From an uncultured Acidobacteriaceae bacterium (GTDB taxonomy: Bacteria > Acidobacteriota > Terriglobia > Terriglobales > Acidobacteriaceae), in NCBI GenBank assembly GCA_963836875.1, contig CAWIKZ010000004.1, positions 48,387-112,386 of the forward strand: a DNA stretch of 64,000 nucleotides, in the 5' to 3' direction. The position numbers and the translations under genes are program-made. The notes under the pieces are model-generated. The model did no database searches. It was not told the DNA's origin and worked only from the letters and a program-made list of their open reading frames with translations. How positions within the stretch are numbered: the first letter of the stretch is position 1; every line of letters begins with the position of its first letter. This document shows, one piece after another, positions 32,200 through 48,403 of this stretch.

Positions 32200-32946
32200 C
32201 TATGCGTTTTGGGCCTTGCCGCAACGTTCCGCCAGCCAGCCAGCAGTGACGGCCAGTACTTCATAGTTGAACTTAAGTTCGCCGTGGTTGAACCAGCGCG
32301 GCAAATAGCGGATCAGTCCGTTGTCATGCTTAATGTCCGGGCGCAAATCGGTGGTGACATATCGCAAATCGCTCTTGGGCAGGGCCGCCTTCAGTCCGGC
32401 TGCGCCCTCGAGAATGGCTGGGATGTCACGCTCAGCGTAGAGCAGCAAAGCAGGACGATCGTGGGAGGCGACGGGGCCGAGGAGGTCGAGCAATTCAATC
32501 ACATATCCCGAATAGGGTTCGCGCACGGCGGGGCTGGGAAAATTCTCGAACATCCACTTGCCTTGTGGTGAGATCGCCGCAACCACCGAAGGCGATATGG
32601 CCACCATACAATCAGCCGAAGACATCAGGGCCAGCCGGCCGCCCAAGCTGATGCCCAGAGCCGCCGCACGGCCGAAGCGGCGCATGTAATTAACTGCGGA
32701 GTCAACTTCGTCGCGCATCACCGGACCGATGGCGGTGCGATTTTCACCGTGCCCACAGAGGTCGATGGAAAGTGCCGCCAGGCCAACCTCTCCCAGTGCG
32801 GCGGCGATACCCAGCATGTGCTCCTTGGTACTGCCATAGGGCGGGATCAGCGCGACACCGCCACGCGCCGGGTCCGGCGTAAGCAGGTAGGCAGGGATGT
32901 TGTGGCCGTCGGTGGCAGTCAGTGTTGTGACGCGCTCCAGGTTCAT
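32200..32946 (-). CDS. alpha/beta hydrolase (dienelactone-hydrolase-like)
   Basis: Nucleophile elbow AALGISLGGRLAL, a HG oxyanion-like segment (DLCGHGEN), and a 248-aa size typical of single-domain esterases. Confidence 0.75.
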   Translation of the reverse strand: MNLERVTTLTATDGHNIPAYLLTPDPARGGVALIPPYGSTKEHMLGIAAALGEVGLAALSIDLCGHGENRTAIGPVMRDEVDSAVNYMRRFGRAAALGISLGGRLALMSSADCMVAISPSVVAAISPQGKWMFENFPSPAVREPYSGYVIELLDLLGPVASHDRPALLLYAERDIPAILEGAAGLKAALPKSDLRYVTTDLRPDIKHDNGLIRYLPRWFNHGELKFNYEVLAVTAGWLAERCGKAQNA

Positions 32947-33103: not shown

Positions 33104-33580
33104 CTAGACCTTGTCCTCAGCCGGGACATGGGCGGGCTTCAGCTTGGCTTCCAGTTCAGCCAGGCGCGCGCGGAGGGCCTTGTCCCGCTCCCAGCGCGCG
33201 GTCACATCCTGAATGCTGGCGGATGCCCCCAGGATTTGCCCGTCGGCAGCCTTGAGCAACGCGATGTTGAACTCGACCGAGATCCGCCGGCCATCTTTGG
33301 TGAGTGCGGGAACGGCAAGCACGTTCTGGCCGTACTTGGTGAGCCCGGTTTCCATGACATGGGAGTAGCCCTCCCAGTGACGCGCCCGGTGCTTCTCCGG
33401 GATGATCATATCCATGGACTGGCCGAGTGCCTCGTCAGCGCTCCAACCAAACATAGCTTCCGCGCCCGCATTCCAGAGGCGCACAATGCCCTCCCGATCG
33501 CCAAAGATGATGGCGAGTGGGATCTGTTCCACAATGCTTTCGCAGAGCCATTGGCGCGTAGGAAGGTCGTTCATCAACAA
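33104..33580 (-). CDS. single PAS-domain sensor protein
   Basis: ESIVEQIPLAIIFGDREGIVRLWNAGAEAMFGWSADEALGQSMDMIIPEKHRARHWEGY...GRRISVEFNIALLKAADGQILGASASIQDVTARW, followed by a coiled-coil tail. Confidence 0.75.
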   Translation of the reverse strand: MLMNDLPTRQWLCESIVEQIPLAIIFGDREGIVRLWNAGAEAMFGWSADEALGQSMDMIIPEKHRARHWEGYSHVMETGLTKYGQNVLAVPALTKDGRRISVEFNIALLKAADGQILGASASIQDVTARWERDKALRARLAELEAKLKPAHVPAEDKV

Positions 33581-33826: not shown

Positions 33827-35452
33827 CTACAGAGCCACCGGTTCTTTCTGCCTTAGCACGCGGCGGAGCAGCTTACCCGTGGGCGTACGTGGGAGTTCGT
33901 CCACGATCACGACTTCCCGGGGCAGCTTGTAGGTTGCAATCTTGCCCTTGCAGAAGGCGATCAGCTCGTCTTGGCTGACGGATTCTCCCGGCCGCAGCAC
34001 GACGAAAGCTTTGGCAATTTGGCCGCGCACCTCGTCCGGCACTCCGATGACCGCGACATCGGCGACAGCAGGATGGGTGGCCAGGGTGACCTCAATCTCC
34101 TCCGGTCCAATGCGGTAACCCGAACTCTTGATGATGTCGTCCTGCCGCGACACGAACCAGAAGTAGCCGTCTTCATCGGCATGCACGAAGTCGCCGGCCC
34201 GATTCCATCCCTCGGGAGTGATGGCATGGCGCTGTTTATCGGGATCGCGCCAATAGACCGTGCCGGTTGGCCCGATGGCCACAAAGTGACCGATCGTCCC
34301 CGGCTTGGCTTCCTTGTCCTCCTCGTCGATGACCTTCAGCTCGTAACCCGGTACGGCTTGGCCGAAGGAGCCCGGCTTGGCCTTGCGGCTGACCACGTTG
34401 GAGGCGAAAACATACATCATCTCAGTGGTACCCAAGCCTTCGAAGATCTCCAGACCGAATTTCTCCTTCCAGGCATGATAGGTCGGGGCGGTCAGGCTCT
34501 CGCCGCCTCCCGTACAGACCCGCAGGCTGCTGAGATTAAATCTCTTTGCCACGTCCGGCACCTGCAACATCTTGCGATAGGCGGTGGGGGCCAGAGTCAG
34601 GATGGAGATGCGATGTTTCTGTATCGTGTCGAACATCTTCTCCGGTTCGAACCTGGCGATCAGCGACGCGGCCGCACCGAAACGGAAGGGAATGGTCGCG
34701 TAACTGGAGTAGCCCGCGCCGAAAGCGAGCGGGGCCGATCCACCAATAACGTCGTTCTCCGTGACCTGCCACCCGTACTTACCGAAACCGTCCGGAACAA
34801 TCAGCAGTTCCTCTACGAAGTGCACGGTCCCTTTCGGTCGTCCGGTGGTGCCCGACGTATAGAGGAGCAGACCAACGTCCTCGCGTTTGCGAAGCACGGG
34901 ATCGACCTCGGTCGTGCCGGACTGCAACAGCTCGCCATAGGCGAGGAAACCCTTGGCCTTCACCTCGGCAGCATCGCCGCCAATGACAATAATGCTCTTG
35001 ACCGTCTGCAAGCTGTCGCGCGCCGCTTCCACTTCCCCCAGGAGCGCCGCACTGACGATGATGGCCACCGCTTCGGAGTCGTTGGCGACGTGCGCGATCT
35101 CGGCACGCGAGAACAGCGGCGAGGTCGGAGTGCAAACTGCTCCCAGCTTAAGGATGGCAAAGTTGGCGACCAGGGCAGGAGGTATGTTCGGCGTGCGTAG
35201 AATGACGCGGTCGCCAGCGCTCACTCCTAAGTCCCGCAGTGCGCTCGCCAGCTTGTTGGCTTGAGTAAGGAGCTGATTGTAGGTCAGCCGCTGGTCTTCG
35301 AAAAGCACAGCGGTGCGGTCACCCCGTCCAGCGGCGACAGCCTTACCAAGCAATTCTTCTGTAGGGTTGAATTTTTCCGCATAGGTCGCGAATTCCGGCA
35401 ACGTGTAAACACGCTTCGGCCACAACTCGCGTGGGGGTAGATATTCGGCCAT
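33827..35452 (-). CDS. AMP-forming acyl/aryl-CoA ligase (benzoate-/aminobenzoate-CoA-ligase-like ANL family)
   Basis: LLYTSGTTGRPKGTVH (AMP-binding motif), YGTTE-like GLGTTEM, GDFVHADEDGYFWFVSRQDDIIKSSGYRIGPEEIE, and a terminal PRTPTGKLLRR. Confidence 0.9.
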   Translation of the reverse strand: MAEYLPPRELWPKRVYTLPEFATYAEKFNPTEELLGKAVAAGRGDRTAVLFEDQRLTYNQLLTQANKLASALRDLGVSAGDRVILRTPNIPPALVANFAILKLGAVCTPTSPLFSRAEIAHVANDSEAVAIIVSAALLGEVEAARDSLQTVKSIIVIGGDAAEVKAKGFLAYGELLQSGTTEVDPVLRKREDVGLLLYTSGTTGRPKGTVHFVEELLIVPDGFGKYGWQVTENDVIGGSAPLAFGAGYSSYATIPFRFGAAASLIARFEPEKMFDTIQKHRISILTLAPTAYRKMLQVPDVAKRFNLSSLRVCTGGGESLTAPTYHAWKEKFGLEIFEGLGTTEMMYVFASNVVSRKAKPGSFGQAVPGYELKVIDEEDKEAKPGTIGHFVAIGPTGTVYWRDPDKQRHAITPEGWNRAGDFVHADEDGYFWFVSRQDDIIKSSGYRIGPEEIEVTLATHPAVADVAVIGVPDEVRGQIAKAFVVLRPGESVSQDELIAFCKGKIATYKLPREVVIVDELPRTPTGKLLRRVLRQKEPVAL

Positions 35453-35465
35453 CTTGGGATACTCC

Positions 35466-36107
35466 TTACCCCGCTGTCGTGGCTACTTGGGGGTTGGGCT
35501 TCGTCGCTGCGATCAGATCTTCCAGGGCCTGCTCCACGCGGATCGTACCGCGCTTGGCATCGGTCCGTGGGAAAGCCATGACGGGATAGCGGTCGCCTTC
35601 GAAGATAAGCAGCGCGGGGACGGTGGTCCCGAAGTCCTCGACCAGCGCGCCTTTAAAGCCGAAGACCGGGCGTACGCTCGCATCCGGGCCGGTGACCGAC
35701 TTGTGATAGGTGGGAAAGCGGTCCTTCATCCCGTCGACGTCGATCGCCTTGCAGGTCATGCCCGCAGCTTGTAGCTGCTTTACCAATTCGAGGGCACGCT
35801 TGATGTCGCAGGGAAACGTCTGGCCCGGCTTCTGGGTGGAGCTGTAGTAGAACTCCGCCTGCTTGGCAGCGGTCGACTTCGCGGCCGCAACCGCGGCCTT
35901 GGCGACGACTGGTTCGGGTGGGGCATAGGTGCTGCCGCTGGCCTCGAAGACCTCGCACTCGGTCCAGCCTTGCAGCGTAATGGACAGGGTGAACGGCCAT
36001 TCGCGTTTCACGCACTTGCCGAGATAGGCCTTCTGAATATTGGCATCAAGCGCCGGCTTCAGATGCTTGCAGCGGACGCAGAGACATTCAGTGTTGTAAT
36101 GGGCCAT
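35466..36107 (-). CDS. hypothetical protein: Cys-rich N-domain + Ala-rich linker + C-terminal alpha/beta domain
   Basis: MAHYNTECLCVRCKHLKP...GKCVKREWPFTL...WTECEVFEASG; linker APPEPVVAKAAVAAAKSTAAKQ. The start is 13 nt after... i.e. tightly packed between the ligase (35452) and the Zn-ribbon gene (36125). I recognise no family. Confidence 0.5.
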   Translation of the reverse strand: MAHYNTECLCVRCKHLKPALDANIQKAYLGKCVKREWPFTLSITLQGWTECEVFEASGSTYAPPEPVVAKAAVAAAKSTAAKQAEFYYSSTQKPGQTFPCDIKRALELVKQLQAAGMTCKAIDVDGMKDRFPTYHKSVTGPDASVRPVFGFKGALVEDFGTTVPALLIFEGDRYPVMAFPRTDAKRGTIRVEQALEDLIAATKPNPQVATTAG

Positions 36108-36124
36108 AGTTGCCTCCAGTTTCT

Positions 36125-36502
36125 TTAGCTGGCTCCCGCCACCATGAATTTGGCCTTGCTGCCTACCAGATCTTCCTTCTTCAAGGGATATCCAGCGATG
36201 ATTTTGCCCCGCACATTACGTTTCATTGGGATGGGCTTACAAACAGCGTCCTTGCGAGCGCGCGGCGCCGGACGGGTCAGCCCAGGACCAGAGATGGCGG
36301 AATAATCCTGCCGCTCCGCGAAGCCGGGCAACAGGTCGGCGGTGCCGCTGGCCTCCTTGGGGCCGGCCACGCCGATTCCATTCACGACCTCGATATACCA
36401 GATCGTAGCGCATTCGGCACACTTAGTGGTGCCCTTGAAGTTCCAAAAGGGGTAGGGATCAAGGAAATTCTTAGTCTTACACTTGGAGCATGTGAGCAAC
36501 AT
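36125..36502 (-). CDS. hypothetical zinc-ribbon protein
   Basis: MLLTCSKCKTKNFLDPYPFWNFKGTTKCAECAT = CxxC...CxxC ribbon. Basic/disordered middle and conserved-looking tail RNVRGKIIAGYPLKKEDLVGSKAKF. Lies 12 nt downstream of the CoA-transferase stop. Confidence 0.5.
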   Translation of the reverse strand: MLLTCSKCKTKNFLDPYPFWNFKGTTKCAECATIWYIEVVNGIGVAGPKEASGTADLLPGFAERQDYSAISGPGLTRPAPRARKDAVCKPIPMKRNVRGKIIAGYPLKKEDLVGSKAKFMVAGAS

Positions 36503-36514
36503 AGTTGTTCTCCG

Positions 36515-37879
36515 TCAGATGCACTCTTGGTCTTCCAGCCGTTTAATATCGTCAGGCGTCAGTCCGGCAAGCTTGCCGAAGATGTACTCGTTATCGGCGC
36601 CCACCGGTTTCAGGGCCCATTTGAGCCGGGGCGGAGTCGCCGACATTTTGTACGCCGGCCCCTGGTGCAACAGTTCACCGTACGTCGGGTCATCCAGCCA
36701 GCGAACCGCTCCCCGCTCATTCCAATGCGGATGTTCGGCGACTTCTTTGGCGTTCCATACCGGCTGGTTAATGATGTTGTTCGCATCCATGATGGCGGCC
36801 ACCTGTTCCTTGGTCTTGTCGGCCGCCCACTTCTCCAGGGCCGGATAAATCTCCATCTGGCTCTCGGCCTTGACGCGAATATCGGCCTTGGCGTACTTGC
36901 CGGCCAAGGTGGTGTCGCCAATGGCCTTGCATAGGCGGGCAAAGTCCTTGTCCGCAGACGCGCTGATCAGGATATAACCTTCTTCCATCTCTTGCGGATT
37001 CTCAGAGTTGGGATAGGAGGACTTGCCGCACTTGATGATGCCATGCACGCAAAGCTGCGTGTCCCAGTTGCCCCATCGTTCACGAGTGATACCGTGCTTG
37101 CCGTAGAGCGGCAAAGCATACTCCAGTTGGCGGGTGACACCGTGCACCTGCGAATACTCGGTAAAGGTGCCTTCGCCGGACACGTGATCACGCCAATACA
37201 GCGCCGCTAAGACTTGGGTCGCGCCCATCATGCCGCCCCAGTAATCGGCCAGCCAAATGGTGTGCTTCGCGGGAGCGCCGCCGAGAAACTCCTGCTTGCC
37301 GGTCATACCGAAGTTGCCGCCCTGCGACTGACCCAGAATGTCGTAGGAGGCGCGTACGCGTCCCGGACCCCAGCCGCCAAACCCACCCAGCCAGCAGTAG
37401 ATGAGCCGGGGATTGATCTCCTTCAACTGGCGGTATCCGATGCCCCAACGGTCGAAGGTGCCGGGGCGGTAATTCTCCACAAAAACATCTGATTTCGCAG
37501 CCAGGTTCTTAACGAGGTCCTGGCCTTCTTTCTTGTGAAAGTCGATCGAGACGAAGTGCTCGTTCGGGTTGGCGCCCAGAAAGCCGAGTCCGGTGCCGCG
37601 CTCTGGTACCCACTTGGAAAGCGGATACAGGAATGGCTCATTAAATGGCGTGGTATGGCGCATGGCCTCGCCCCGCCGCGGCGCTTCGATCTTGATGACT
37701 TCAGCGCCAAGTTCGGCCAAATAGGATGCGCAGGAGGGGCCCAAAATATACTGCGTACAAGACAACACTCGGTAGCCCTTCAGCACTTCCGGTTTCGCAA
37801 ATTCTTTCTTGGGATTGAAGGTCTCCCGGCAATACGCCTCAAAGTTCTGCGGCTTGGTAGTGGGTTGCGTTGCCATCAC
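36515..37879 (-). CDS. family III (CaiB/BaiF) CoA-transferase, large form, paralog B
   Basis: LKGYRVLSCTQYILGPSCASYLAELGAEVIKIEAPRRGEAMR (N-terminal Rossmann-like CoA site), VENYRPGTFDRWGIGY, INPRLIYCWLGGFG. Confidence 0.85.
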   Translation of the reverse strand: MMATQPTTKPQNFEAYCRETFNPKKEFAKPEVLKGYRVLSCTQYILGPSCASYLAELGAEVIKIEAPRRGEAMRHTTPFNEPFLYPLSKWVPERGTGLGFLGANPNEHFVSIDFHKKEGQDLVKNLAAKSDVFVENYRPGTFDRWGIGYRQLKEINPRLIYCWLGGFGGWGPGRVRASYDILGQSQGGNFGMTGKQEFLGGAPAKHTIWLADYWGGMMGATQVLAALYWRDHVSGEGTFTEYSQVHGVTRQLEYALPLYGKHGITRERWGNWDTQLCVHGIIKCGKSSYPNSENPQEMEEGYILISASADKDFARLCKAIGDTTLAGKYAKADIRVKAESQMEIYPALEKWAADKTKEQVAAIMDANNIINQPVWNAKEVAEHPHWNERGAVRWLDDPTYGELLHQGPAYKMSATPPRLKWALKPVGADNEYIFGKLAGLTPDDIKRLEDQECI

Positions 37880-37891
37880 ATTCCTCCTGCG

Positions 37892-39298
37892 TCAAATGAC
37901 GTTCGCCTTCTGCAGCCGCTCGAAATCGTCACGCGTGAAGCCGAGCAGACTGCGATATGTATCCTGGTTGTCGTAGCCGGTGGGCCGGCCCATCCACTTC
38001 AGCCGCCCAGGAGTCTTATGTTGCAGGTAAGGAGTGGTGCCGTAGAGGATCTTCCCATAGTGCGGCGAGTCGTACTCGGCCACGTGCCCGCGATATTTAA
38101 AGTGCGGGTATTCGGCCACCTCGTTCACATAGAGCACGCCGCCGGACGCCACTTGCTGTTTGCCAAGTTTGGCTTCGGCTTCACTGCGAGAGTTGTCTTT
38201 CAGCCACTCGCCCAGCATAGTGTAAGTCTTGACCTGCATATCGTGACCCAGCCGGTCGGCCACCTCGCGCAGGTGGGGATCGCCGAGGATGTCCTCTTCG
38301 ACCTTGGGCTGCTCGTCGCCCACGGTACGCCAGATGCGGTACCACAAGCGGTCGTGGCCGCCTCCCACCATCATGTAGCCGTCTTTGCAGGGGTTCACGG
38401 CGTAAATGTTGATGGCCAAGTCCCAGTTGCCGTAGCGCGGACGAATGCTGCCGTCCATCGAGTACCACGCCCAACTATAATCGAGGATGCGGATGATGGC
38501 TTCGGCGGCCGTAGCTTCGACAAACTGGCCCTCGCCAGAAATGTTTTCCCGATAGATGAGGGCCGCCAGGATGCCCATGGCCGCTGAACTTCCGCCTACG
38601 TGGTCGGCCATCCACAGAGCAGAGCGCGTGGGTTGTCCGCCGAACTCCTTGGGATCACCGGTGCCGTGGACAAATCCGCAGGCTGCCTGGGCCACCGGAT
38701 CCAGCATTCCCGGTTGGTCCTTGAGGGGGCCCCACTGTCCGCGCTGGCCCACCCAGCAGTAAATCAGCCGGGGATTAATTTCGCGCAACTGGCGATAACC
38801 GATGCCCCAACCGTCCCACTGTCCCGGCGGTGCATTCTCGATGATCACGTCAGCGTGGACCGCGAGGTCCTTGAGAATCTGCCGGCCCTCTTCGGTTTCC
38901 AGGTTCAGGGTGATGGAGGATTTGTTGCGCATTTCGTGGAGAAACTGTGCGCCGACTTTCTCCCCAGTTTGCTTGTCCTCGAACATGTACTCTTGCCGGC
39001 CAAAGGGCGTGAGCTGGCGCAACGGGTCACCGCCCGGAGGCTCGACCTGGATGACCTCGGCGCCCAGTTCGGCCAGTTGCGAGGAGCACCAATGGCCAAT
39101 CATCATTCGGGTGCTGCAGTCCAACACACGAAAACGGGAAAGCGCTTCCGGTTTTTCGAAATTATGTTCCTGGCGCGTGATCGATTCCAGGAAAAGCGGG
39201 TACTCCTTGGCTTGGTCACTCAGCCCGGCGTACACCTCTTCGGGTTTGAGTTTGGGAATCGCTGGCCAAGCTGCGACCTTGTCTTGAGCTGCTGCCAT
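37892..39298 (-). CDS. family III (CaiB/BaiF) CoA-transferase, large form, paralog A
   Basis: LSRFRVLDCSTRMMIGHWCSSQLAELGAEVIQVEPPGGDPLRQ, IENAPPGQWDGWGIGY, INPRLIYCWVGQRG. Colinear with 36515..37879; 12-nt spacer. Confidence 0.85.
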   Translation of the reverse strand: MAAAQDKVAAWPAIPKLKPEEVYAGLSDQAKEYPLFLESITRQEHNFEKPEALSRFRVLDCSTRMMIGHWCSSQLAELGAEVIQVEPPGGDPLRQLTPFGRQEYMFEDKQTGEKVGAQFLHEMRNKSSITLNLETEEGRQILKDLAVHADVIIENAPPGQWDGWGIGYRQLREINPRLIYCWVGQRGQWGPLKDQPGMLDPVAQAACGFVHGTGDPKEFGGQPTRSALWMADHVGGSSAAMGILAALIYRENISGEGQFVEATAAEAIIRILDYSWAWYSMDGSIRPRYGNWDLAINIYAVNPCKDGYMMVGGGHDRLWYRIWRTVGDEQPKVEEDILGDPHLREVADRLGHDMQVKTYTMLGEWLKDNSRSEAEAKLGKQQVASGGVLYVNEVAEYPHFKYRGHVAEYDSPHYGKILYGTTPYLQHKTPGRLKWMGRPTGYDNQDTYRSLLGFTRDDFERLQKANVI

Positions 39299-39546
39299 GT
39301 GTGTGGCCTCCTAATACCGGTGGTAGGTGAGTTGCCACCAAAACGAGTGCTGTCCACTATATCTCGGGCGAAGGGCCGTTGGAAGCTAATAAAACGCTTG
39401 CAGTTTCAAACGGGGCCTGACACTTCCATTCGAAATCGTATTCACGCCGGCTTCGAGTCGCGCATTTGCCGCCGGACTCTATCCGTTGAAAATCAAACTC
39501 TTTGTCAATTGGGGGCAGATTATCTTATGCGGCTGAGAGCCCCGTC

Positions 39547-39562
39547 TGTGACTGCGGTCACA
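39547..39562. promoter_or_regulatory. perfect CRP-consensus palindrome TGTGA-CTGCGG-TCACA
   Basis: Lies in the 307-nt gap between the amidohydrolase stop (39606) and the CoA-transferase start (39298), about 250 nt upstream of the latter. Confidence 0.4.
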
Positions 39563-39605
39563 TTCGTCGGTGAGTTGCGACCAACTGGCGAAAAGCCGGT
39601 TGCCC

Positions 39606-40451
39606 TCAATCCGGCCAGATGGTAAGCGCCACTTGGCCGAGAATGAGCCGCTTGGTTTCCGCCGACAATGGCAACGCCCGGAAGGAGTCGAGGGCTTCCT
39701 TGATCTCGTGCACACCTGGCCCTGGCCAGTCGCTGCCGAAGAGCGTTTTGTGGGCGATCTCTTCCAGGCGAGGAAAGTACTGCAGCAGGTGAACCGGCGG
39801 AATGCTGCTGATGTCCAAATAAACATTGGCATGGCGGCGTACCAGGAAAAAGGCGGTGCTCATCCAGAGAGGCCGGCCTCCATGGGCAAGCACAATCTTC
39901 AGGTGCGGGAAATCGACGGCTACATCGTCGACGTGGATCGGGTCTCCGTACTTGTTGCGCGCCCCAGGAAAGATTGAGGTGCCGGTGTGAAACATAATGG
40001 GGATGCCGTGGCTCTGCGCTGCTCGGTACAACAGCTCCAGCTCTTTCAAACCATTGCGGTAGTCGTTGGGGTAGAAGAGTTGATGCGGGGGATGGATCTT
40101 GATCAGCCGCAAACCCAGCCGGACTATCTCATCGATGTCCGCCATGGCATTGGTCGAGTACCGCGGATGGAAGCCGCCACAGGAGAGGAGCCGCCGAGGG
40201 GCCGCCTTGGCATAGTCTGCGGCCATGGCGTTAAGTCCAGCGGGAAAGCCGGTGACATCGGGCGCGGCCGCGTTGATCAGCACGGCGCGGTCCAGCCCGG
40301 CCTCGTCCATGTATTTCAGAAAAGCTTTGGGCGAGCGGGTGAACTCCAAGACCCGATCGAAATCGGGCTGATGCTTTTTCATGAGCTCCAGGGCCGGGGG
40401 GTTCAGCAGGAGTTCGAACGGCTGGATATGGACGTGGCAGTCGGTGATCAA
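39606..40451 (-). CDS. amidohydrolase-2 family metal-dependent hydrolase/decarboxylase (ACMSD/LigW/LigI superfamily)
   Basis: MITDCHVHIQP (HxH metal motif), IPIMFHTG, KIVLAHGGRP, LFGSDWPG (terminal Asp). Confidence 0.8.
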   Translation of the reverse strand: MITDCHVHIQPFELLLNPPALELMKKHQPDFDRVLEFTRSPKAFLKYMDEAGLDRAVLINAAAPDVTGFPAGLNAMAADYAKAAPRRLLSCGGFHPRYSTNAMADIDEIVRLGLRLIKIHPPHQLFYPNDYRNGLKELELLYRAAQSHGIPIMFHTGTSIFPGARNKYGDPIHVDDVAVDFPHLKIVLAHGGRPLWMSTAFFLVRRHANVYLDISSIPPVHLLQYFPRLEEIAHKTLFGSDWPGPGVHEIKEALDSFRALPLSAETKRLILGQVALTIWPD

Positions 40452-40697
40452 GGAACTTGCCTGGGTCTTGTCTGGTAACGTGAGCGGGTTACAGGATCCG
40501 GGTGACCGGATCCTGCCCGGTCATGCATCTACAGGTGCGGAAGCCAAGTGCAGCAGCGGCATGGGAGAAATGGCTCTCATCCCCCCAAACCTATCGCGAC
40601 CCTTGGCGCCCGGTTTGAAAGCTCCTGTCGGCGACGCGATGTGGCCATTCTTGAGCACATCCACCAAGTCACTCAGGAGGCCAGCGGAATTGCCTCC

Positions 40698-41015
40698 TCA
40701 AGCCGCCTTGCCGCTTACGATCTTGTGGCAGGTCGAGGTCTGCACGTCGAAGGCATGTACCTTGGGCTTGCTGTGCACCAAATGTTGAATCAATTCGGCG
40801 ACCTTGGCGTAATCTTCATGGGTGTAACGTTCGGCATCCTCCTTCGTCTTCCAGAAGCTTTGTGCCAGGATGCCTTCCGCATCCGACACCAGTACGATTT
40901 CATCTACAAAGCCTGTCTGCGCTTTTAACGTAGACAGCACCTTCTCATGCAGCACGCTGCAAACCTCTTTGGCTTTCCCAGGCTTAGTCTTGACTTCCAC
41001 AACACGAACAAACAT
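40698..41015 (-). CDS. ABM/Dabb-fold (antibiotic-biosynthesis-monooxygenase-like) small protein
   Basis: ORF 40698..41219; ATG 41015: MFVRVVEVKTKPGKAKEVCSVLHEKVLSTLKAQTGFVDEIVLVSDAEGILAQSFWKTKEDAERY. This is a ferredoxin-like beta-alpha-beta pattern of about 105 aa. Confidence 0.55.
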   Translation of the reverse strand: MFVRVVEVKTKPGKAKEVCSVLHEKVLSTLKAQTGFVDEIVLVSDAEGILAQSFWKTKEDAERYTHEDYAKVAELIQHLVHSKPKVHAFDVQTSTCHKIVSGKAA

Positions 41016-41110
41016 GGCAGATCTCCTTTTGATCGAAGTATGAAGGCTAACAACCGTCCATGAATAACGACGGTTGGAAAACGGACGCCGGCCTCGCGCT
41101 GCGCGCTTTC

Positions 41111-42082
41111 TTAGGCCGGTTGCGGCACCGGTTGACGCGCCTCGTTCAGCAGCACCAGAGTCATATTGCCGCGCCGGCTGTCGCGCTCCGCCCGGATGGC
41201 TTCCAGCCGTAAGCGCCACGGGTCAAGATCGAAAGGCTGATCCGCGGGCTTCGCCAGGCACGCGTCAATAAGCTCGCGGTAGAAGCGCACAATGCTGGCC
41301 ACCAAGGGCACAGGATACTCACGCCCCTGGATCTTCAGGCAGTGGACCCCCAGATCAATAAGCGCCGGGATATCGTCCAGGTAAAAGAAGGCGTCATTCT
41401 TGAGCGCGATTTGCGGTTCCAGCAGCGCTTCGCCATCGAACAGCTCCCACTGTTCCAGGCAGACGCGGTAATCCAGGCCGCCGCGGTTGGGGCTGCCGCG
41501 GAACAAGTCCTTGCCGAAGTTGTCGGTGGTCCGCTCCAAGCGGTGATAGGGTGACATCCAGCACTTGCCCAGGTAGGTGTAGCAGTTGTTGGCGTGGATG
41601 AGGACTTCGATGCCCGCATCCAGCTCCGCCTGGCGCGCCACCAGCTCGCGGAAGGTGAGCTTGGTGTCGGCCACTACTTGTGAGACCCCAATTGAGCGAT
41701 AGAACTTCACGTCCTGGTTGTTGACAATGTTGGCCCCAATGCTGGCGTGCAGCACAAGATGGGGAAACCGGCGGTGCACCTGCGCCATGGCGCCCACGTC
41801 GGTCATGATCGCTCCGTCCACGCCCCAGCCAACGAACTTGTCCATCTTCTGCAGCAACGAGGGGATTTCGCACGACTGCATGTTGGTATTGATAGCGACA
41901 CGCAGCTTGGCCCCGCCGGCGTGGGCGATTGCGATGGCTTCATGCAATTGCTCATCGGCCAGTTCGTAGGCATCGCGCCTCCGGCTCCAGCCCCGTGCCC
42001 CGACATAGATCGCATTGGCGCCGTTTTCCACGGCGGCCTTCACCATCTCCAGGTTTCCTGCCGGTGCTAATAGCTCAACCAT
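41111..42082 (-). CDS. peptidase-U32-family protein (UbiU/UbiV/TrhP/RlhA-type), copy C
   Basis: ATG 42082 follows GAGGTG: MVELLAPAGNLEMVKAAVENGANAIYVGARGWSRR (canonical U32 N-terminus). TIM-barrel-like repeats and a central Cys cluster (NNCYTYLGKCWMSPYH...RVCLEQW). Confidence 0.85.
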   Translation of the reverse strand: MVELLAPAGNLEMVKAAVENGANAIYVGARGWSRRRDAYELADEQLHEAIAIAHAGGAKLRVAINTNMQSCEIPSLLQKMDKFVGWGVDGAIMTDVGAMAQVHRRFPHLVLHASIGANIVNNQDVKFYRSIGVSQVVADTKLTFRELVARQAELDAGIEVLIHANNCYTYLGKCWMSPYHRLERTTDNFGKDLFRGSPNRGGLDYRVCLEQWELFDGEALLEPQIALKNDAFFYLDDIPALIDLGVHCLKIQGREYPVPLVASIVRFYRELIDACLAKPADQPFDLDPWRLRLEAIRAERDSRRGNMTLVLLNEARQPVPQPA

Positions 42083-42106
42083 CACACACCTCGAAATACG
42101 CAAGAA

Positions 42107-43039
42107 CTAACCGCAGGCCGCGATTGCTTCCACGCGTTTGCCGACATACTCGCTGCCGGTGCGGCCGAAATAAAAACCGTTGCACAAACCCACCGCCGTA
42201 TGCTCGCGGATCGCCTGCCACGCTGACTCGTCCACCGTCCCATCACCGGCGACGGCGCTCTCCAGCGCGGCGCGATAGACCTGTCCTATCTGAAGACGGT
42301 ACGCGGGTGTCTCGTAGGCCGCCTCGATCCGGAACACCCTATGGCCGGCGGCCACCAGGGCCGGTAGATGCTCGAGCATGCATAAGTCCTTGCCGCTCAG
42401 CACCCCCTTGCCCACCGACCGCATGGCCCAGTTACCCTGTTTGAGGAACAACTGTTTTTGGCAGAGCACCGGGCATTTCTCCGGCCAGTGCTGCTCATAC
42501 TCCAGCAAGAAGCAGTAATCGGAGACCCCCAGCGGCATCTTGCCATGGACCTGGATCTCTGCCGGCATACCGGCGCCACGGGTAATGGATTCCACTTCGT
42601 CCAGGCTGATCTCGTAATTTGGCGTGAAGCGCACCGCGCCATACTCCTTCAGCACCTCGGCCCCGGCGTCGGTGTACACGTTGGCAAATCCGCCGACGTG
42701 TGCCGCCATTCCGGGAAACTGCTCGTGGACCATGCGCAGCACGCCGAGGTTATGCACCTCGACCGCGTCGGCGCCGGCCGCAGCCGCGGTCTCCAGAGCC
42801 ATCTGCACTTTGGGCAGCGCGTCATTCCTCGGCGCAGCGTACGAGGTCACATAGGCCCGCAAGCCCTGGTCCTTTACCCGCGCGATGCCTTCCTTAAGGT
42901 CATCCGTGCGCTCCAGAAAATTGTCCTCGAAGAGGCGGCAATAAATGTTGCCCAGGTACACCGCGTCATAAGCGCTCAGGTCCGATTCCAGCAAGCTGCG
43001 CAGGTTGGAGATTGTCGTATTTAGTTCGACGCTACCCAT
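42107..43039 (-). CDS. divergent peptidase-U32-like protein, copy B
   Basis: Same size and periodicity as the neighbours (AVYLGNIYCRLF, ADAVEVHNLGVLRMV, IQVHGKMPLGVSDYCFLLEYEQHWPEKCPVLCQKQ). The start abuts the stop of copy A (43040). Confidence 0.65.
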   Translation of the reverse strand: MGSVELNTTISNLRSLLESDLSAYDAVYLGNIYCRLFEDNFLERTDDLKEGIARVKDQGLRAYVTSYAAPRNDALPKVQMALETAAAAGADAVEVHNLGVLRMVHEQFPGMAAHVGGFANVYTDAGAEVLKEYGAVRFTPNYEISLDEVESITRGAGMPAEIQVHGKMPLGVSDYCFLLEYEQHWPEKCPVLCQKQLFLKQGNWAMRSVGKGVLSGKDLCMLEHLPALVAAGHRVFRIEAAYETPAYRLQIGQVYRAALESAVAGDGTVDESAWQAIREHTAVGLCNGFYFGRTGSEYVGKRVEAIAACG

Positions 43040-43930
43040 TCAACGTCCTTGTACAGTCCACATGGCCGGCAGTCTAGGTGGGTCCCATTCGCCCTTTTGC
43101 CCGCACTTCCAGGCATCCGCAGCCGAACGGTATATCCCGATGATAACACTCACCATCTCCGCCGAAAGGCTGCGCCCCTGGATTTTAATTACGTCCACCC
43201 CCGCATCGAGGAAGGCTGCCAGTTCGGCCACCCGGCTGATCTGGCGGCTGGGAAACAAGCGCTGGTCAGCCTCAACTCCATCGTTCAGCAGCGTCCATGG
43301 CTGCTGGCAGATGCGGAAGCAAGTGCCGACTCCGCCCCGTTTGACGCTGCCGCCCAGGCGTTGCGCAGGAAAGATCCGGTCGGCCGCGGCGAAGTGTACA
43401 TAACTTGGCATCCAGCACTTCCCCAGTTGAATGAACTCTTGCACCATGTGCAGCATGACCTCGACCTGGATCGAAGCCTTGGCCTTGATGGCCGCGATTT
43501 CCTCCGGTTCGAGATACCCTGGCAGGACAATCGCAGTTGCGCCCAGGTCCTGGTAAAAAAGGGCGTCGTCGGTATTCAGCGCACCGCAGCCAATGCTGGC
43601 CGTGATGGCCAATCCCGGCAGTTTCCGCCTGACTTCGCGCAGAAACCCGGCGTCGTTCAGGATCACTGCCTGCAGTCCCCAGTCCGCCAATTCGGACAGT
43701 TGCTGCAGCAGCCGTTGGCGCTCCGGCGGCTTGGGAATGATGTTTGCCGCAAGTTGCACCCTTTTGCCGAGCGCGTGAGCCAGTTCGATGCACTGCCGCA
43801 ACTGCTCACGATCAAATTCGCCTCGCGCGCCGCCACGGCTCCAGCCCTTTAGTCCCACGTACACCGCGTCCGCGCCTGCCTGAAACGCCTGCTTGGCCGC
43901 CTCGAGATTGCCGGCAGGAGCCAGCAGCAT
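43040..43930 (-). CDS. peptidase-U32-family protein, copy A
   Basis: ORF 43040..44098. ATG 43930 gives the canonical MLLAPAGNLEAAKQAFQAGADAVYVGLKGWSRGG. Cys cluster LGKCWMPSYVH...GVGTCFRICQQPW. Alternative starts are 44020 and 44098. Confidence 0.8.
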   Translation of the reverse strand: MLLAPAGNLEAAKQAFQAGADAVYVGLKGWSRGGARGEFDREQLRQCIELAHALGKRVQLAANIIPKPPERQRLLQQLSELADWGLQAVILNDAGFLREVRRKLPGLAITASIGCGALNTDDALFYQDLGATAIVLPGYLEPEEIAAIKAKASIQVEVMLHMVQEFIQLGKCWMPSYVHFAAADRIFPAQRLGGSVKRGGVGTCFRICQQPWTLLNDGVEADQRLFPSRQISRVAELAAFLDAGVDVIKIQGRSLSAEMVSVIIGIYRSAADAWKCGQKGEWDPPRLPAMWTVQGR

Positions 43931-44207
43931 GGCACACCCCTTGGGCACGTCAATGCCGCAGCCCTGCGCAGTGGAAAGTGGGCTGGCCTGCAAAGGCCCA
44001 TAGCCCGGGATTGGTTCCATACCCAAGTTGGCCCCCAATTGCTCCCTGAGTCTGTGAGTAATGTCACGCCGAGGGGTGACGGCAAACATTGTCACCAATT
44101 CTACCAGTGACTTTGTGCATTTTCAGGCTGGCCCAACATCCCTGCGGCCGCCTTCTTCTACGTGACAGCGAAGACAATTCTCGGCTGGAGTTGCACCGGT
44201 CCGTGGC

Positions 44208-44612
44208 TCAAGAGCTTTGCGCCTGCTTGACGCGCTGCTTCTCTTCGAACCTGCTTTTGCTGACGATGGCCCGCTTGATGGTGCCGTGCCCGATAACCTC
44301 GCTGCCGTCGTGCGCGCTGACCTTGAAGGTGTAGAAGCGGCCATCGAACGACTCCAGCACCGCTTCGGCCTTTACCATGGCGTCGATTCCGCTCGCCGCG
44401 CGATGAGTGACGTTGACCGCCGTGCCGACACTGACCTCATCACCTTCGCAAAACGGCAGCAGCGCGTTGAAGCCCGCTTCCTCCATCCACTTGATCATGT
44501 ATGGAGTCGACAACACCGCAGGAAGCTCCTCTCGGAATGCCGTGAGGGTGTGCTGGAACTGGACCCGCTCTTCCACCTCTCCGCGCGCCCCGATGGGGAC
44601 TGGTTTCGCCAT
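44208..44612 (-). CDS. hotdog-fold acyl-CoA thioesterase, FlK-like family (paralog of 26555..26956)
   Basis: VLSTPYMIKWMEEAGFNALLPF...SVGTAVNVTHRAASGIDAMVKAEAVLESFDGRFYTFKVSAHDGSEVIGHGTIKRAIV. Thr/Glu/His positions are conserved with the other copy. Confidence 0.7.
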   Translation of the reverse strand: MAKPVPIGARGEVEERVQFQHTLTAFREELPAVLSTPYMIKWMEEAGFNALLPFCEGDEVSVGTAVNVTHRAASGIDAMVKAEAVLESFDGRFYTFKVSAHDGSEVIGHGTIKRAIVSKSRFEEKQRVKQAQSS

Positions 44613-44740
44613 CGTTTACAGTGTAGTGCCCGTTTTCTGCGGTGTCACTCCGGTTCGAGTGGAATGTTAGCCAGCACCTCCTCATCGCAAGGCACAGGGA
44701 CCTTCCGGCAGTATGGCTGCACTCAAATGCCGGATGCTCG

Positions 44741-45871
44741 CTAAGACACGCGATCGCCTTTTCGACGGTGAGACGCGCTGGACTTATCGGTCGGTATTCT
44801 CCCTTGAACGATCAAGGCTTCCTCATGGATATGTTCAAAAAGGTCCCGCGCAAAGCTCTCCGATAGAAGGTTCTTAACGCTAGACCGGACCCTATCCTGG
44901 ATTATGTGTTCCCATCTTTCCGGCTGAAACAACGATATATTGTGGGCCCGTTTCCAGGTCCCTATGTGCCGGACACATTCCATTCGTTTGGCCAGAAGTG
45001 CGATCAGATCGTTGTCAATCGCATCGATTTGTTTTCGCAGAAGCTTTATCTCTTGCGGAAGGCGCGCCGGCCCATCGCAGGACACGTAGCGCAGTTTGTT
45101 AATGAGTCTGCCATATTGGAGCGGAGTCAATTGTTGTCTGGCGTCGCTAAGAGAAGCCGGTGGCGCACAGTGGACCTCAATCATCAGACCGTCAAAAAGA
45201 AAGTCGATCGCCTGTTGCGCCAATGCCATGATGTAATTGCGCGTGCCGCAAATGTGGCTAGGGTCGCATATGAGCGGCAGGTCGGGCAGCCGTCTGCGTA
45301 GCTCGATGGGGATCCTCCAAATAGGCCGATTACGATACAGGTGCTCCCTATAAGTGGAAAAGCCCCGGTGTACCGCCATGATCTTTGTAATTCCGGCTTT
45401 GTTGATTCGTTCGATGGCTCCGATCCATAACTCCAGGTCCGGGTTCATAGGGTTCTTGATCATGACGGGAATGTCCACGCCCCGCAGCGCATCGGCAATC
45501 TCTTGGACCGCGAAAGGACTGGTGGTGGTCCGAGCGCCAATCCACAGAATATCGATCCCAGCTTTCAGACATTCCTCTACATGAGTCGGCTTTGCGGCTT
45601 CTGTAGCCACCGGCAACCCTGCAGCATTCCCCGCCTGTTTTAACCACATCAGCCCTTTCGCCCCAACGCCTTCGAACGAACCGGGACGCGTTCGTGGCTT
45701 CCAGATCCCCCCTCGTATGGCTGTGACTTCGTAGGCTGAGAGCTGCCGGGCCGTCTTCAGCATTTGCTCCTCTGATTCCACACTGCATGGACCGGCGATA
45801 AGGAACTTCTTCCTCACGGGCATGCCCCATTCAGAAAGCGGGTTGATACGCAGATTTGGCTCTGTTGACAT
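44741..45871 (-). CDS. bifunctional 3-deoxy-7-phosphoheptulonate (DAHP) synthase, type I-beta, fused to a C-terminal chorismate mutase
   Basis: ORF 44741..45955; ATG 45871 follows AAGGAGGG. The KDO8PS-like DAHPS core has KFLIAGPCSVES, GGIWKPRTRPGSFEGVG, LICDPSHICG. The C-terminal approx. 90 aa (LRKQIDAIDNDLIALLAKRMECVRHIGTWKRAHNISLFQPERWEHI) match an AroQ-type chorismate mutase. Confidence 0.85.
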   Translation of the reverse strand: MSTEPNLRINPLSEWGMPVRKKFLIAGPCSVESEEQMLKTARQLSAYEVTAIRGGIWKPRTRPGSFEGVGAKGLMWLKQAGNAAGLPVATEAAKPTHVEECLKAGIDILWIGARTTTSPFAVQEIADALRGVDIPVMIKNPMNPDLELWIGAIERINKAGITKIMAVHRGFSTYREHLYRNRPIWRIPIELRRRLPDLPLICDPSHICGTRNYIMALAQQAIDFLFDGLMIEVHCAPPASLSDARQQLTPLQYGRLINKLRYVSCDGPARLPQEIKLLRKQIDAIDNDLIALLAKRMECVRHIGTWKRAHNISLFQPERWEHIIQDRVRSSVKNLLSESFARDLFEHIHEEALIVQGRIPTDKSSASHRRKGDRVS

Positions 45872-46339
45872 GCTAAGTTCCCTCCTTCGCTCCTGTCCCA
45901 GAATTGCAAAGATGGCTGCCGAGGTTTGCCTGAGAGGGCGCGGGATTGTCATCAATCATAAAGGATGCCGTGCGTGGGCCGTGGCACAGAACACAGGATC
46001 AGGCCCACTCTTGAGTGGCTGTGGTGAGGGGAGATATTTTACAGTGGCGGGAAATGGCGGGATTTCGCGGGTTTTGTCGCGCCCGAATTCGGCGAAACTC
46101 GACCTACTTGTGCGGAATTGATTTGCAGTGCCTGGCTGTCGGCAACCGTAACCTATTGAAAAGCCAGCATGGATTTTCGTCCCGGGACCGAGAAATTGGC
46201 AGAGCGTGAAACCCAGGATCCAGTTACGCACTAACTATCTGATTACAAACAGCTTTCATTTGCGGAAAGCTCAGAACTGAGGTACCCAATCAGCGGCAGA
46301 AAAACGGCAGAGATCGAGCTGCGCATTTTGAGGGAGATC

Positions 46340-46612
46340 TTAACTTTCCTCTTGCCCGAGCCCAGCGTGTTTGGCTAGCCTTCCGCGACGACTCGCTGGG
46401 CGGGTTTTTACGTCATGGACTTTGTGGCTTCTAGGAAGGCCGCAAATCCTACAGGTACGAAAGCCAGCAGTTGGCTCGAACGAATGTGGCTTGTCTGACC
46501 CACGCCGTGCCGGCTGCTCTCGCACTTCTGCACCTGGTTTGAAGAGCCAGGCGAGACAACAGAGGGCGGCCACACTCACGATGATGCGCAATATCTTCCC
46601 GCTTGCCCGCAT
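46340..46612 (-). CDS. possible small membrane-anchored hypothetical protein
   Basis: 90-aa ORF with one hydrophobic helix (ILRIIVSVAALCCLAWLF). It lies in the AT-richer island and has no recognisable family, so it could be non-coding. Confidence 0.25.
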   Translation of the reverse strand: MRASGKILRIIVSVAALCCLAWLFKPGAEVREQPARRGSDKPHSFEPTAGFRTCRICGLPRSHKVHDVKTRPASRRGRLAKHAGLGQEES

Positions 46613-46964
46613 CGCTTGGTACCTTCTACTAGAACCCAGCCACTGGCGTTCCTTTCTTCTCCACCGAGCTAGTCAGCCCTTTCCTCGTTTGTCCGTTTTG
46701 GATATTGAGTCTTCGACAGGAGAGCAATGTCAATCCCAGCCTTAGCCCAAAACCACAGGCGCTCCCTGTGGTTCATCAAAACTAAACGCGGCCGAGTCTT
46801 CGATGCAGGAGGCCCTTTCCTTGGAAGGCAGCGCTTTGCATGGCGTGGTCTTCGACCGTTATGAGCATCCCGGAAACGAGAGGGAGAGCTCGACTGTCAG
46901 GATCCGGGCGTGAATCTCCCTCCGATCCTGACAGCGAAGGAGTTTAGTTCGGAGCTGGAAATTG

Positions 46965-48008
46965 TTAGGCCGCGACTGTGTAGCGGTGATGCAGACCACC
47001 GAGTCGCGGCAGAGAGATAACCTTGTGGCCACTCGAATGCGGTGACGCTGCAACTCGACCACCGGGAGTGTTCTTCCCGAGTCCGAGATGAGTCCGGTCC
47101 TCGTGGTAGTAACGGACGTACTCATTCAGCAACCGTCGCAGATGTCTGCGATTCAGCACGATCACATGATCGAGTAAGTCCCGCCGCACACTGCCAACCC
47201 AGCGCTCGGCAATGCCGTTCTGCCAAGGACTGCGGAATGCGGTGCGAATCGGTTGGCTGCCCATCGCCTTCACGGTCGAGACCACATCGGCACTGAACTT
47301 CGCGTCCCGATCAAAGATCAGGAAGCGTTGCGGCTGTTGGCTGTATTCCCAAGTCTCGTGCAACTGCAGGGCAACCCAAAGCGCGTTGGGATTGCGAGTC
47401 ACGTTGCAGTGCAGGATCCGACGCCGGTCGTGGCCGATCACGAAGAAGCAGTACAGAATGCCGAAGGTCACTGTCGGCACCGTGAAAAAGTCCATCGCTG
47501 CGATCGCCTCGCGATGATTACGAAGAAAAATCAGCCAGCGCCTGGCGGGATCGGGAGGTCTTGGGGCTCGCCGAACCCAGCGCGAAACCGTTGGTTCCGA
47601 TAGATCGAAGCCGAGCTTGAGCAACTCGCCGTGAATGCGGGGCGCTCCCCAAGTTGGATTTTCCGCAACCATTTGAAAAATTAAGGCTCGAATCTGTTTG
47701 CTCACCGGCTTTCGACCGCCCCTCGACTTGGCTCTGGAAAGCCATTTCCAATACAGCCGAAAACCGGCACGATGCCAGCCGACAACGGTTCTGGGTGTCA
47801 CCTGGATGAGAGGTTCCTTCCATCGAGCCCAGCACCTTCGCAATACGACCCAGAACAGCTTGTGTGACGCAGTGAGTCGCCGGCGAGGGCGCTGGGCGTG
47901 AAGAGCCAGCAACTGCTGACGCAGGGCAAGATTTTCGAGGATGATATCCTCGCGGGACCTGAATGCACCAACGACCCAGCCGAGGAAGTGCCGGAGCCAT
48001 ACGATCAT
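46965..48008 (-). CDS. DDE (rve/integrase-core) transposase of an IS element (IS481/IS3-superfamily-like)
   Basis: 347 aa and apparently intact. N-terminal ENLALRQQLLAL..RPRR helix, HTH-like FQMVAENPTWGAPRIHGELLKLG, and a catalytic core with DFFTV... / FDRDAKF / SPWQNGIAERW..S.RRDLLDH, tail YYHEDRTHLGLGKNTP. I could not identify the element ends. Confidence 0.8.
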   Translation of the reverse strand: MIVWLRHFLGWVVGAFRSREDIILENLALRQQLLALHAQRPRRRLTASHKLFWVVLRRCWARWKEPLIQVTPRTVVGWHRAGFRLYWKWLSRAKSRGGRKPVSKQIRALIFQMVAENPTWGAPRIHGELLKLGFDLSEPTVSRWVRRAPRPPDPARRWLIFLRNHREAIAAMDFFTVPTVTFGILYCFFVIGHDRRRILHCNVTRNPNALWVALQLHETWEYSQQPQRFLIFDRDAKFSADVVSTVKAMGSQPIRTAFRSPWQNGIAERWVGSVRRDLLDHVIVLNRRHLRRLLNEYVRYYHEDRTHLGLGKNTPGGRVAASPHSSGHKVISLPRLGGLHHRYTVAA

Positions 48009-48403
48009 GCCCAGAATCTTACCGGAACGTTGTCAATCGAGCTTGCTGCCAAGTCATTGATATTGCGGGTGTACGATGTTTTGATGAATGACAGGAGAAG
48101 GCAATCCGAAGAGACTAATCGAGGCTGCAAGTCTCGCCTTTTCAAACCGATCGAATTTCTTGACCATACGGGTAATTGATACGCTCGGCAGGCTGCGGAC
48201 CGCTCAGTTGATGACAACTCCTTCCGCTGTGCAATAACTCTCAAACGGGTAATCCGAGTTTGCCCGAAATACTTGACTCCCCGAAATAACACGTTGCAGC
48301 CGGAGTCGGAGATGCTGCCCCCGAGATTATGCCTTGGCCACCTTCATTCGGAAGTAGTGGCGAAGGATCGTGGAATGCTTCCGAAAGAAGCCGACGGACC
48401 CCA

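Follow-up and report, generated by a model that had tools for sequence, protein, structure and literature searches.

No enzymes other than the U32 iron-sulfur (Fe-S) proteins are known to hydroxylate aromatic rings with oxygen from an organic donor, which in their case is prephenate. UbiU and UbiV (YhbU and YhbV of Escherichia coli) are single-domain U32 proteins of about 300 residues, encoded side by side, which form a heterodimer and carry defined cysteine motifs (PMC6747719). Prephenate was established both genetically and isotopically as the oxygen donor of UbiUV and is genetically required for TrhP (YegQ) and RlhA (YdcP) (PMC10990095, PMC11574389), and the TrhP1/TrhP2 pair (YrrO/YrrN) shows that two tandem U32 paralogues may each be indispensable. 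Here we describe three adjacent U32 genes, U32a, U32b and U32c, in a 64,000-nucleotide stretch of DNA from an uncultured Acidobacteriaceae bacterium of peat soil (assembly GCA_963836875.1, contig CAWIKZ010000004.1, positions 48,387 to 112,386 of the forward strand), the whole of which is referred to as the window. Comparison of the proteins indicates that together they most likely make up a single heteromeric [4Fe-4S] enzyme with an architecture like that of UbiU-UbiV, and we tentatively favor the reading that this U32abc complex is a UbiUV-like O2-independent hydroxylase acting on a coenzyme A (CoA)-activated acid.

The three genes form a tight unit and are encoded as follows:
43040..44098, minus strand: U32a, a long-spacer UbiU/TrhP-like U32 subunit (PF01136)
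42107..43039, minus strand: U32b, a UbiV-like U32 subunit (PF01136)
41111..42082, minus strand: U32c, a long-spacer U32 subunit (PF01136)

A preliminary description of this DNA had all three genes abutting. The TGA of U32a does directly abut the ATG of U32b, but U32b and U32c are separated by 24 nucleotides which hold a GAGG Shine-Dalgarno sequence. The M.ELLAPAGN N-terminus in the same description requires some qualification, as the MLLAPAGN motif of U32a sits behind an extension of about 55 residues within the open reading frame, and this extension aligns in most orthologues. The start of U32a is uncertain (44098, 44089, 44020 or 43930), with gene callers giving 326 or 349 residues.

PF01136 was the sole Pfam domain found in the window U32 proteins (296–323 residues), with scores of 104–126 bits against a cut-off of 22.4 (1e-29 to 1e-36). 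On the NCBIfam models U32a reached 111 bits with UbiU (cut-off 440), U32b aligned over its full length with UbiV at 78 bits (cut-off 275), and U32c gave 141 bits with TrhP (cut-off 534) and 131 bits with UbiU; TrhP scores across the three proteins were 90–141 bits. Identity to the four E. coli U32 proteins by BLASTP was 19–28% (19–27% to UbiU-UbiV, 22–28% to TrhP and RlhA). Because of these sub-cut-off scores and low identities the three proteins are, as judged by sequence comparison, not orthologues of UbiU, UbiV, TrhP or RlhA, and the ordinary quinone or RNA-modification genes which would have made the locus unremarkable were not what was found. We therefore consider it very improbable that they serve anaerobic quinone synthesis as UbiU/UbiV or RNA hydroxylation as TrhP/RlhA. 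UbiU, UbiV and TrhP are admittedly the best NCBIfam matches, the proteins are similar in size to UbiU and UbiV, and U32 proteins are already known to occur in pairs (UbiU/UbiV, TrhP1/TrhP2), but the scores (78–141 bits) fall far below the cut-offs (275–534), no SCP2 protein (UbiT) or ubi genes were found in the cluster or its flanks, and the C-terminal RNA-associated domains of TrhP and RlhA are lacking. A 2026 survey (PMC13386864) also counts against such orthology: beyond Pseudomonadota it reports this O2-independent route to ubiquinone from Desulfobacterota class GWC2-55-46 alone.

Cluster ligand positions were read from an alignment with UbiU, UbiV, TrhP and RlhA and from the published motifs (PMC6747719). 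U32b has the UbiV arrangement, an N-terminal Cys followed by C-x12-C-x3-C (C34 + C176-x12-C189-x3-C193), which aligns with UbiV C39/C180/C193/C197, with none of the four Cys varying among 27 orthologues. In U32a the positions read Glu-x6-Cys-x31-Cys-x3-Cys, the first canonical Cys being replaced by Glu, and this Glu and the three Cys are invariant in 25–26 orthologues. In U32c they read Cys-x6-Cys-x29-Asp-x3-Cys, where the third canonical Cys is Asp, invariant in 27/27. The orthologues in which these two replacements are invariant are 76–99% identical. A test for four Cys (C-x6-C-x15-C-x3/4-C or the UbiV variant) thus returned four for U32b and three each for U32a and U32c, so that the central Cys cluster reported previously for all three proteins is complete in U32b only, with Glu or Asp standing for one Cys in the other two; the expectation that Fe-S ligand positions would be conserved was borne out across the orthologues. 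U32a and U32c are paralogues (34% identical) which resemble UbiU and TrhP in their N-terminal half and share the C1-x6-C2...C3-x3-C4 alignment frame of TrhP, TrhP1/TrhP2 and RlhA, but their C2-C3 spacer is about 30 residues long, compared with 15–16 in TrhP, RlhA and UbiU. Where UbiU has C-x6-C-x16-C-x38-C, the window U-like subunits thus carry three Cys plus Glu or three Cys plus Asp around a spacer of 29–31 residues, and both the spacer and the carboxylate substitutions also set them apart from TrhP and RlhA, as does a genomic context of metabolic and not RNA-related genes. Three Cys together with an invariant carboxylate are compatible with a predicted Fe-S cluster in each of these subunits.

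The fold was checked on an AlphaFold2 model of U32c alone (predicted local distance difference test score, pLDDT, 82.5), in which the cluster loop (residues 168–205) is of low confidence. The top Foldseek match was the U32 peptidase Mk0906 (PDB 5D88; E 3.9e-9, root-mean-square deviation 2.4 over 177 columns), which shares the triosephosphate isomerase (TIM)-barrel U32 domain with the model at 15% identity. This relative, the one U32 member with a solved structure, was recovered by the fold search only, as U32c gave no match to PDB sequences, and nothing closer has been solved. The family name, database labels such as "putative protease" and the collagenolytic activity reported for PrtC and HP0169 (PMC5727448) would speak for genuine U32 peptidases of the collagenase-like PrtC type. 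We find this hardly credible for the window proteins, whose Fe-S ligand positions are conserved, which have no secretion signal and no peptidase context, and whose operon partners are CoA-handling enzymes.

A HMMER pass over 1.84 billion representative proteins returned 9641 U32 relatives, 152 of them at E<=1e-30. The long spacer is shared by nearly all of about 30 short representatives at 33–42% identity. U32a and U32c are members of this rare, uncharacterized long-spacer U32 clade, a placement made by comparison with UbiU, UbiV, TrhP and RlhA; 12 U32 subfamilies (Kimura) have been published. Within the clade 28–36 residues separate C2 from C3. Position C1 is occupied by Cys, Asp, Glu or Asn, unless it has moved into a CPGKC motif. 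Many members keep all four Cys. The change of C3 to Asp was seen only in the U32c lineage of the window, most relatives having four Cys or Asp at C1. Since the Cys-to-carboxylate exchange recurs at a ligand position, we argue that this position still binds metal, and the pattern suggests a site-differentiated cluster.

Such a site can also be read in another way, namely as a reductive or non-hydroxylating Fe-S enzyme which could reductively dehydroxylate its substrate in the manner of IspG/IspH or (de)hydrate a hydroxylated acyl-CoA, the substrate displacing the carboxylate ligand. The IspG cluster is held by three Cys and a Glu. In its favor are the invariant Glu or Asp in both long-spacer subunits, its recurrence across the clade, the ferredoxin gene found in three related operons (L089, L093 and L094, see below) and a review in which an IspH-like cluster-bound mechanism is considered conceivable for U32 enzymes (PMC11574389). 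However, every functionally characterized Fe-S U32 member has been linked to hydroxylation, many clade members keep four Cys, and reductive chemistry is without direct evidence, so that we regard this reading as improbable.

The subunit composition was examined in operons from other lineages which hold at least two U32 genes, and these have the b-type and c-type subfamilies of the window:
L086, L087, L092, L095 and L096: two U32 genes, order b-c
L089, L093, L094, L090 and the window: three U32 genes, order x-b-c
L028-L033 (Rhodocyclaceae and Neptunomonas): four U32 genes, order c-b-c-(binding protein)-c

In the nine loci with classified U32 genes, each operon of at least two U32 genes had exactly one V-like gene, combined with one to three long-spacer genes. 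The same rule held in L028-L033 (three long-spacer and one UbiV-like gene, e.g. L032 7561-16486; including Aromatoleum and Sulfuritalea metagenome-assembled genomes (MAGs), and a Neptunomonas MAG), and L094-L096 fit it by tblastn. Across these lineages the b-type orthologues are 37–47% and the c-type 42–53% identical, while the first gene is more divergent. This rule stands whatever the substrate, as does the recurrent Glu or Asp in place of a cluster Cys, which offers a testable clue to the catalytic subunit.

By analogy with UbiU-UbiV, a heteromer with one [4Fe-4S] cluster per subunit would be a natural model for the window proteins. The operon structure and the presence of a single V-like gene in each operon speak for it, and a composition of UbiU-like plus UbiV-like subunits fits the multi-subunit enzyme envisaged in the preliminary description. 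The differences are that the window has three genes, not two, and that their partners are CoA-handling enzymes. On present comparisons the window system is a member of the U32 superfamily which falls outside UbiU, UbiV, TrhP and RlhA and would work most like UbiU-UbiV. No three- or four-gene U32 version and no account of this clade was found in the searchable literature, in agreement with the earlier statement that a three-U32 operon in this context was not known to be described, and literature on U32 proteins with CoA ligases, on anaerobic aromatics, on Aromatoleum/Thauera and on Acidobacteria or peat described no such cluster.

Evidence on the substrate came from the partner genes. In three unrelated genomes (L089, L093 and L094), each with different flanks, the layout is ligase, three consecutive U32 genes and hotdog thioesterase; the other partner genes differ from those of the window and include a histone-deacetylase-like hydrolase and the ferredoxin. 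The ligases of these loci are 48–49% identical to the window ligase over 99% of its length, which exceeds that of the U32 subunits (37–44%). That two distant lineages both have an orthologous ligase and a hotdog thioesterase beside a triplet would be difficult to account for if the U32 proteins did not act on the product or substrate of the ligase. This supports the thioester link suggested earlier, and the substrate is for the same reason probably a carboxylic acid handled as a CoA thioester. It may be aromatic, because the ligase resembles benzoate and anthranilate ligases: its best PDB matches are anthranilate-CoA and benzoate-CoA ligases, and it scores 337.5 bits on TIGR02262 (benzoate-CoA ligase), under the cut-off of 375.25. 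We regard an aromatic ligase substrate as plausible from these matches.

The window genes around the triplet belong to one minus-strand run from 32200 to 45871. All the genes listed in the preliminary description are present on this strand at the coordinates given there, and the Pfam assignments agree, but the end it had set at 39606 was too early, since CoA-transferases, two small proteins, a ligase, a PAS protein and a hydrolase continue the run to about 32200:
44741..45871, minus strand: DAHP synthase (type I-beta) with C-terminal chorismate mutase (Pfam DAHP_synth_1 1.9e-40, CM_2 2.9e-20), hereafter DAHPS-CM
44208..44612, minus strand: FlK-like hotdog acyl-CoA thioesterase (PF22636, 2.9e-29)
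40698..41015, minus strand: small ABM/Dabb-fold protein, 105 residues (weak ABM match, 26.8 bits against a cut-off of 23.1)
39606..40451, minus strand: Amidohydro_2 metal hydrolase or decarboxylase with N-terminal HxH motif (PF04909, 7e-35)
37892..39298, minus strand: family III CoA-transferase subunit 1 (PF02515, 2.7e-90)
36515..37879, minus strand: family III CoA-transferase subunit 2 (PF02515, 2.2e-88)
36125..36502, minus strand: 125-residue protein with an N-terminal CxxC...CxxC zinc-ribbon-like motif, without Pfam or NCBIfam match
35466..36107, minus strand: 213-residue Terriglobales-specific protein, without Pfam, NCBIfam or PDB match
33827..35452, minus strand: AMP-forming acyl/aryl-CoA ligase (AMP-binding domains)
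33104..33574, minus strand: stand-alone PAS-domain protein, possible sensor (PAS Pfam matches)
32200..32946, minus strand: alpha/beta-hydrolase-like protein, the most distal of the block (weak Abhydrolase_6 match)

A possible course of the reaction can be proposed from this gene set. U32a, U32b and U32c would form the UbiUV-like heteromer and perform an O2-independent hydroxylation, with prephenate as the probable oxygen donor by analogy with UbiUV, TrhP and RlhA. Priming of the pathway in Terriglobales would fall to the ligase, with the two-subunit family III CoA-transferase moving CoA from the product back onto fresh substrate. The amidohydrolase and ABM proteins would act on the resulting hydroxylated acid, through a decarboxylation, hydrolysis or isomerization for instance, and in the clade of the window the adjacent DAHPS-CM may raise the supply of prephenate. 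A dedicated supply of this kind is weakly supported. In a fuller version, the complex would be the first O2-independent hydroxylase to use prephenate on a soluble acyl- or aryl-CoA of a metabolic pathway, and not on a quinone or RNA. A dedicated DAHPS-CM would in the lineage of the window deliver prephenate as stoichiometric oxygen donor, the Glu/Asp-ligated clusters of the two long-spacer subunits would activate the substrate, and the single UbiV-like subunit would be the shared partner for electron transfer. We consider this version doubtful.

To follow the linkage of these genes, the window cluster proteins were searched by tblastn against 27 related Terriglobales loci, of which three (L017, L021 and L027) had flanks too short to score, leaving 24 informative loci. 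The U32 triplet was intact in all 27 and is a conserved unit. In the closest relatives (L001-L008) the full gene set of the window was found, except that L007 is without the amidohydrolase. Gene order is as in the window in L001-L005 and rearranged in L006 and L008, the latter having the CoA block and the ABM/amidohydrolase pair inverted. FlK is intact in L001-L006 and decayed in L007, and despite this decay or rearrangement L007 and L008 still keep DAHPS-CM directly upstream of U32a. In a second arrangement (L009-L012, L018 and L024-L026) triplet and acyl-CoA block occur together but their order varies; the ABM/amidohydrolase pair is absent from L026, and the contig of L009 begins within U32a so that its upstream side is not visible. 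The upstream side in this group holds amylase, phospholipase or transposase genes and no DAHPS-CM. In the third arrangement (L013-L016, L019, L020, L022 and L023) the triplet is on its own, and its neighbors are housekeeping genes and a divergently transcribed sigma-54/PAS activator. Four of these loci (L019, L020, L022 and L023) retain only the first 36–49 FlK codons upstream of U32a and therefore derive from a FlK-U32abc ancestor. The acyl-CoA block (CoA-transferase/ligase) lies within 10 kb of the triplet in 16 of the 24 informative loci, in several arrangements. A complete ABM-to-FlK block (ABM, amidohydrolase, CoA-transferase pair, 125- and 213-residue proteins, ligase, PAS protein, hydrolases and FlK) was also found in L097-L102 with no U32 gene within 10 kb.

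Several of these results weigh against a hydroxylase dedicated to a CoA-activated acid, and we have to admit that the linkage to flanking genes proposed earlier holds only in part. With the triplet alone in eight loci and the block alone in L097-L102, the U32 triplet and the acyl-CoA block are separable, and their coupling is recurrent and not obligatory. DAHPS-CM is adjacent to the triplet in 8/24 informative loci only, all of them close relatives in the shallow clade of the window, so that the local prephenate source of the preliminary description is not a general feature. Other members of the long-spacer clade are accompanied by ABC transporters, by a phosphoenolpyruvate (PEP)-utilizing enzyme and an aminotransferase, or by no partner; the window shows no obvious dedicated electron acceptor; and the ligase scores similarly on fatty-acid and acetate ligase models, which leaves its specificity ambiguous.

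The separate occurrence of triplet and block and the restricted linkage of DAHPS-CM, together with the gaps of 95–307 nucleotides between the sub-units of the window cluster, would also be accommodated by two independent modules lying side by side, the triplet acting on a non-CoA substrate, the block being a separate catabolic operon and DAHPS-CM an ordinary aromatic amino-acid gene. This alternative is possible but in our opinion unlikely. Chance adjacency does not readily account for the 48–49% identical ligase and the hotdog thioesterase which flank triplets in three unrelated genomes, the adjacency in Terriglobales survives inversions and insertions in L008, L024 and L025, and the FlK remnant upstream of U32a in four of the stand-alone loci points to a linked ancestor.

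If a hydroxylase coupled to a CoA ligase is indeed encoded here, its substrate would be small and soluble and could give a tractable assay, and O2-independent hydroxylation would be extended into Terriglobales carbon metabolism. Homologues of the window cluster proteins are abundant in public metagenome assemblies, and a likely setting would be anoxic peat, where phenolic compounds are broken down. As of 2024 U32 chemistry had never been reconstituted in vitro (PMC10990095, PMC11574389); the 2019 UbiUV paper noted that the intermediates of the ubiquinone pathway cannot be bought and are very hydrophobic (PMC6747719), and the other known U32 substrates are RNAs. What is new here is a clade with two to four subunits, carboxylate-substituted predicted cluster sites and an apparent link to CoA-thioester metabolism.

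Among the individual partners, DAHPS-CM scored under every NCBIfam equivalog cut-off. The FlK-like thioesterase reached 101.7 bits on PF22636 (cut-off 27) and matched the S. cattleya FlK structures at E 7e-18; in L097-L102 its gene lies in the acyl-CoA block. The ABM protein was called as a gene by the gene caller and has no PDB relative, but is conserved (78–95% identity), and its gene accompanies that of the amidohydrolase in 16 loci and in L097-L102. For the amidohydrolase, which had been labeled LigW/ACMSD-type, no specific similarity to these enzymes was found. Its best PDB match is the uncharacterized BB4693 (3irs, E 3e-16), only 3irs and 3cjp were found, and there was no NCBIfam match, so that decarboxylase is only one option for this protein.

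Tight spacing is also seen in a second unit, where CoA-transferase subunits 1 and 2, the 125- and 213-residue proteins and the ligase are separated by gaps of 12–17 nucleotides (12 between the two CoA-transferase subunits). The CoA-transferases cover the whole PF02515 profile at 304 and 297 bits, fall far below the cut-offs of the equivalog models, and are always paired, in the related loci as in L097-L102. Subunit 1 gave only distant matches to formyl-CoA, succinate-hydroxymethylglutarate and benzylsuccinate CoA-transferases. The 125-residue protein is conserved in 16 loci, tightly spaced between CoA-transferase subunit 2 and the 213-residue protein. In the latter a Cys/His-rich N-terminal domain is joined by an Ala-rich linker to a C-terminal alpha/beta domain, with conserved residues C10, C13, H15, C32, C51 and C100. 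At least 120 homologues were listed, all from Terriglobales and each at least 78% identical; the AlphaFold2 model was unusable (pLDDT 51).

The PAS protein follows the ligase in 14 loci and in L097-L102 and resembles the heme-PAS regions of FixL and DosP (9e-13 and 1e-7). We take the His in its segment RARHWEGY to resemble the proximal-His region of FixL, and the protein (33104-33574, minus strand) may sense O2 or NO for the block. The alpha/beta hydrolase is present in L001-L007, L026 and L097-L102.

The regulator beside the stand-alone triplets is a sigma-54 activator of about 1050 residues with several PAS domains (L013 5497-8643, minus strand; equivalents in L014, L015, L020, L022 and L023). 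Since stand-alone loci carry this activator, the sequence upstream of U32a or FlK was searched for a sigma-54 promoter (-24/-12 motif), with a negative result for the window and for 15 related loci. A scan for sigma-70 promoters and terminators over 32000-46500 returned fewer sites than shuffled sequence and was uninformative, and an Rfam scan of 31000-47500 (E<=1) gave no riboswitch and no leader. An R2-like ligand-binding oxidase, of a di-metal, O2-dependent family, is encoded near the triplet in L016, L018, L024 and L025; in L018 it adjoins U32c directly (12006-13079) and might be an aerobic counterpart of the U32 enzyme.

The two-gene U32 operons of other lineages adjoin a Peripla_BP_6 ABC transporter, which fits uptake of an organic acid. 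In L086, L087 and L095 (e.g. L086 6883-9957), from one widespread Deltaproteobacteria-like lineage, an MglB/Roadblock-like protein and a small Ras-like GTPase precede the b+c operon, a pairing that is unexpected for a metabolic enzyme. The four-gene operons encode a phosphatase-HisC-like aminotransferase, an NMT1-like binding protein and an 850-residue PEP-utilizing (PPDK_N) enzyme, with a FAA-hydrolase-family protein in most loci. It may be speculated that the aminotransferase could recycle phenylpyruvate, the by-product of prephenate-dependent hydroxylation. The NMT1-like protein was considered as a relative of MqnA or prephenate dehydratase, but this was rejected as its kin are ordinary ABC-transporter binding proteins. 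NMT1_2-type binding-protein ABC transporters also adjoin the Terriglobales acyl-CoA block (L097-L102, e.g. L097 16938-20422) and the L090 triplet (13298-15849). Taken with the solitary binding protein of the Rhodocyclaceae operon, this recurrence may be a hint that the substrates are of one class.

Directly upstream of DAHPS-CM lies an insertion sequence (IS) element with an rve_3 integrase, and beyond it an ABC-3C-type defense locus with DUF3732 and CTD7 proteins (both within 46965-52049, minus strand). The cluster therefore ends there and adjoins a mobile or defense island. Across U32b the window shares 99% identity with a contig of the Acidobacteriaceae MAG palsa_357. Elsewhere in the window (19586-24413 and 28614-30917) lie genes for multi-heme c-type cytochromes and a cytochrome b, together with a quinol-type nitric oxide reductase whose NorB carries a cytochrome c-like domain, and these point to anaerobic or micro-oxic respiration in the host.

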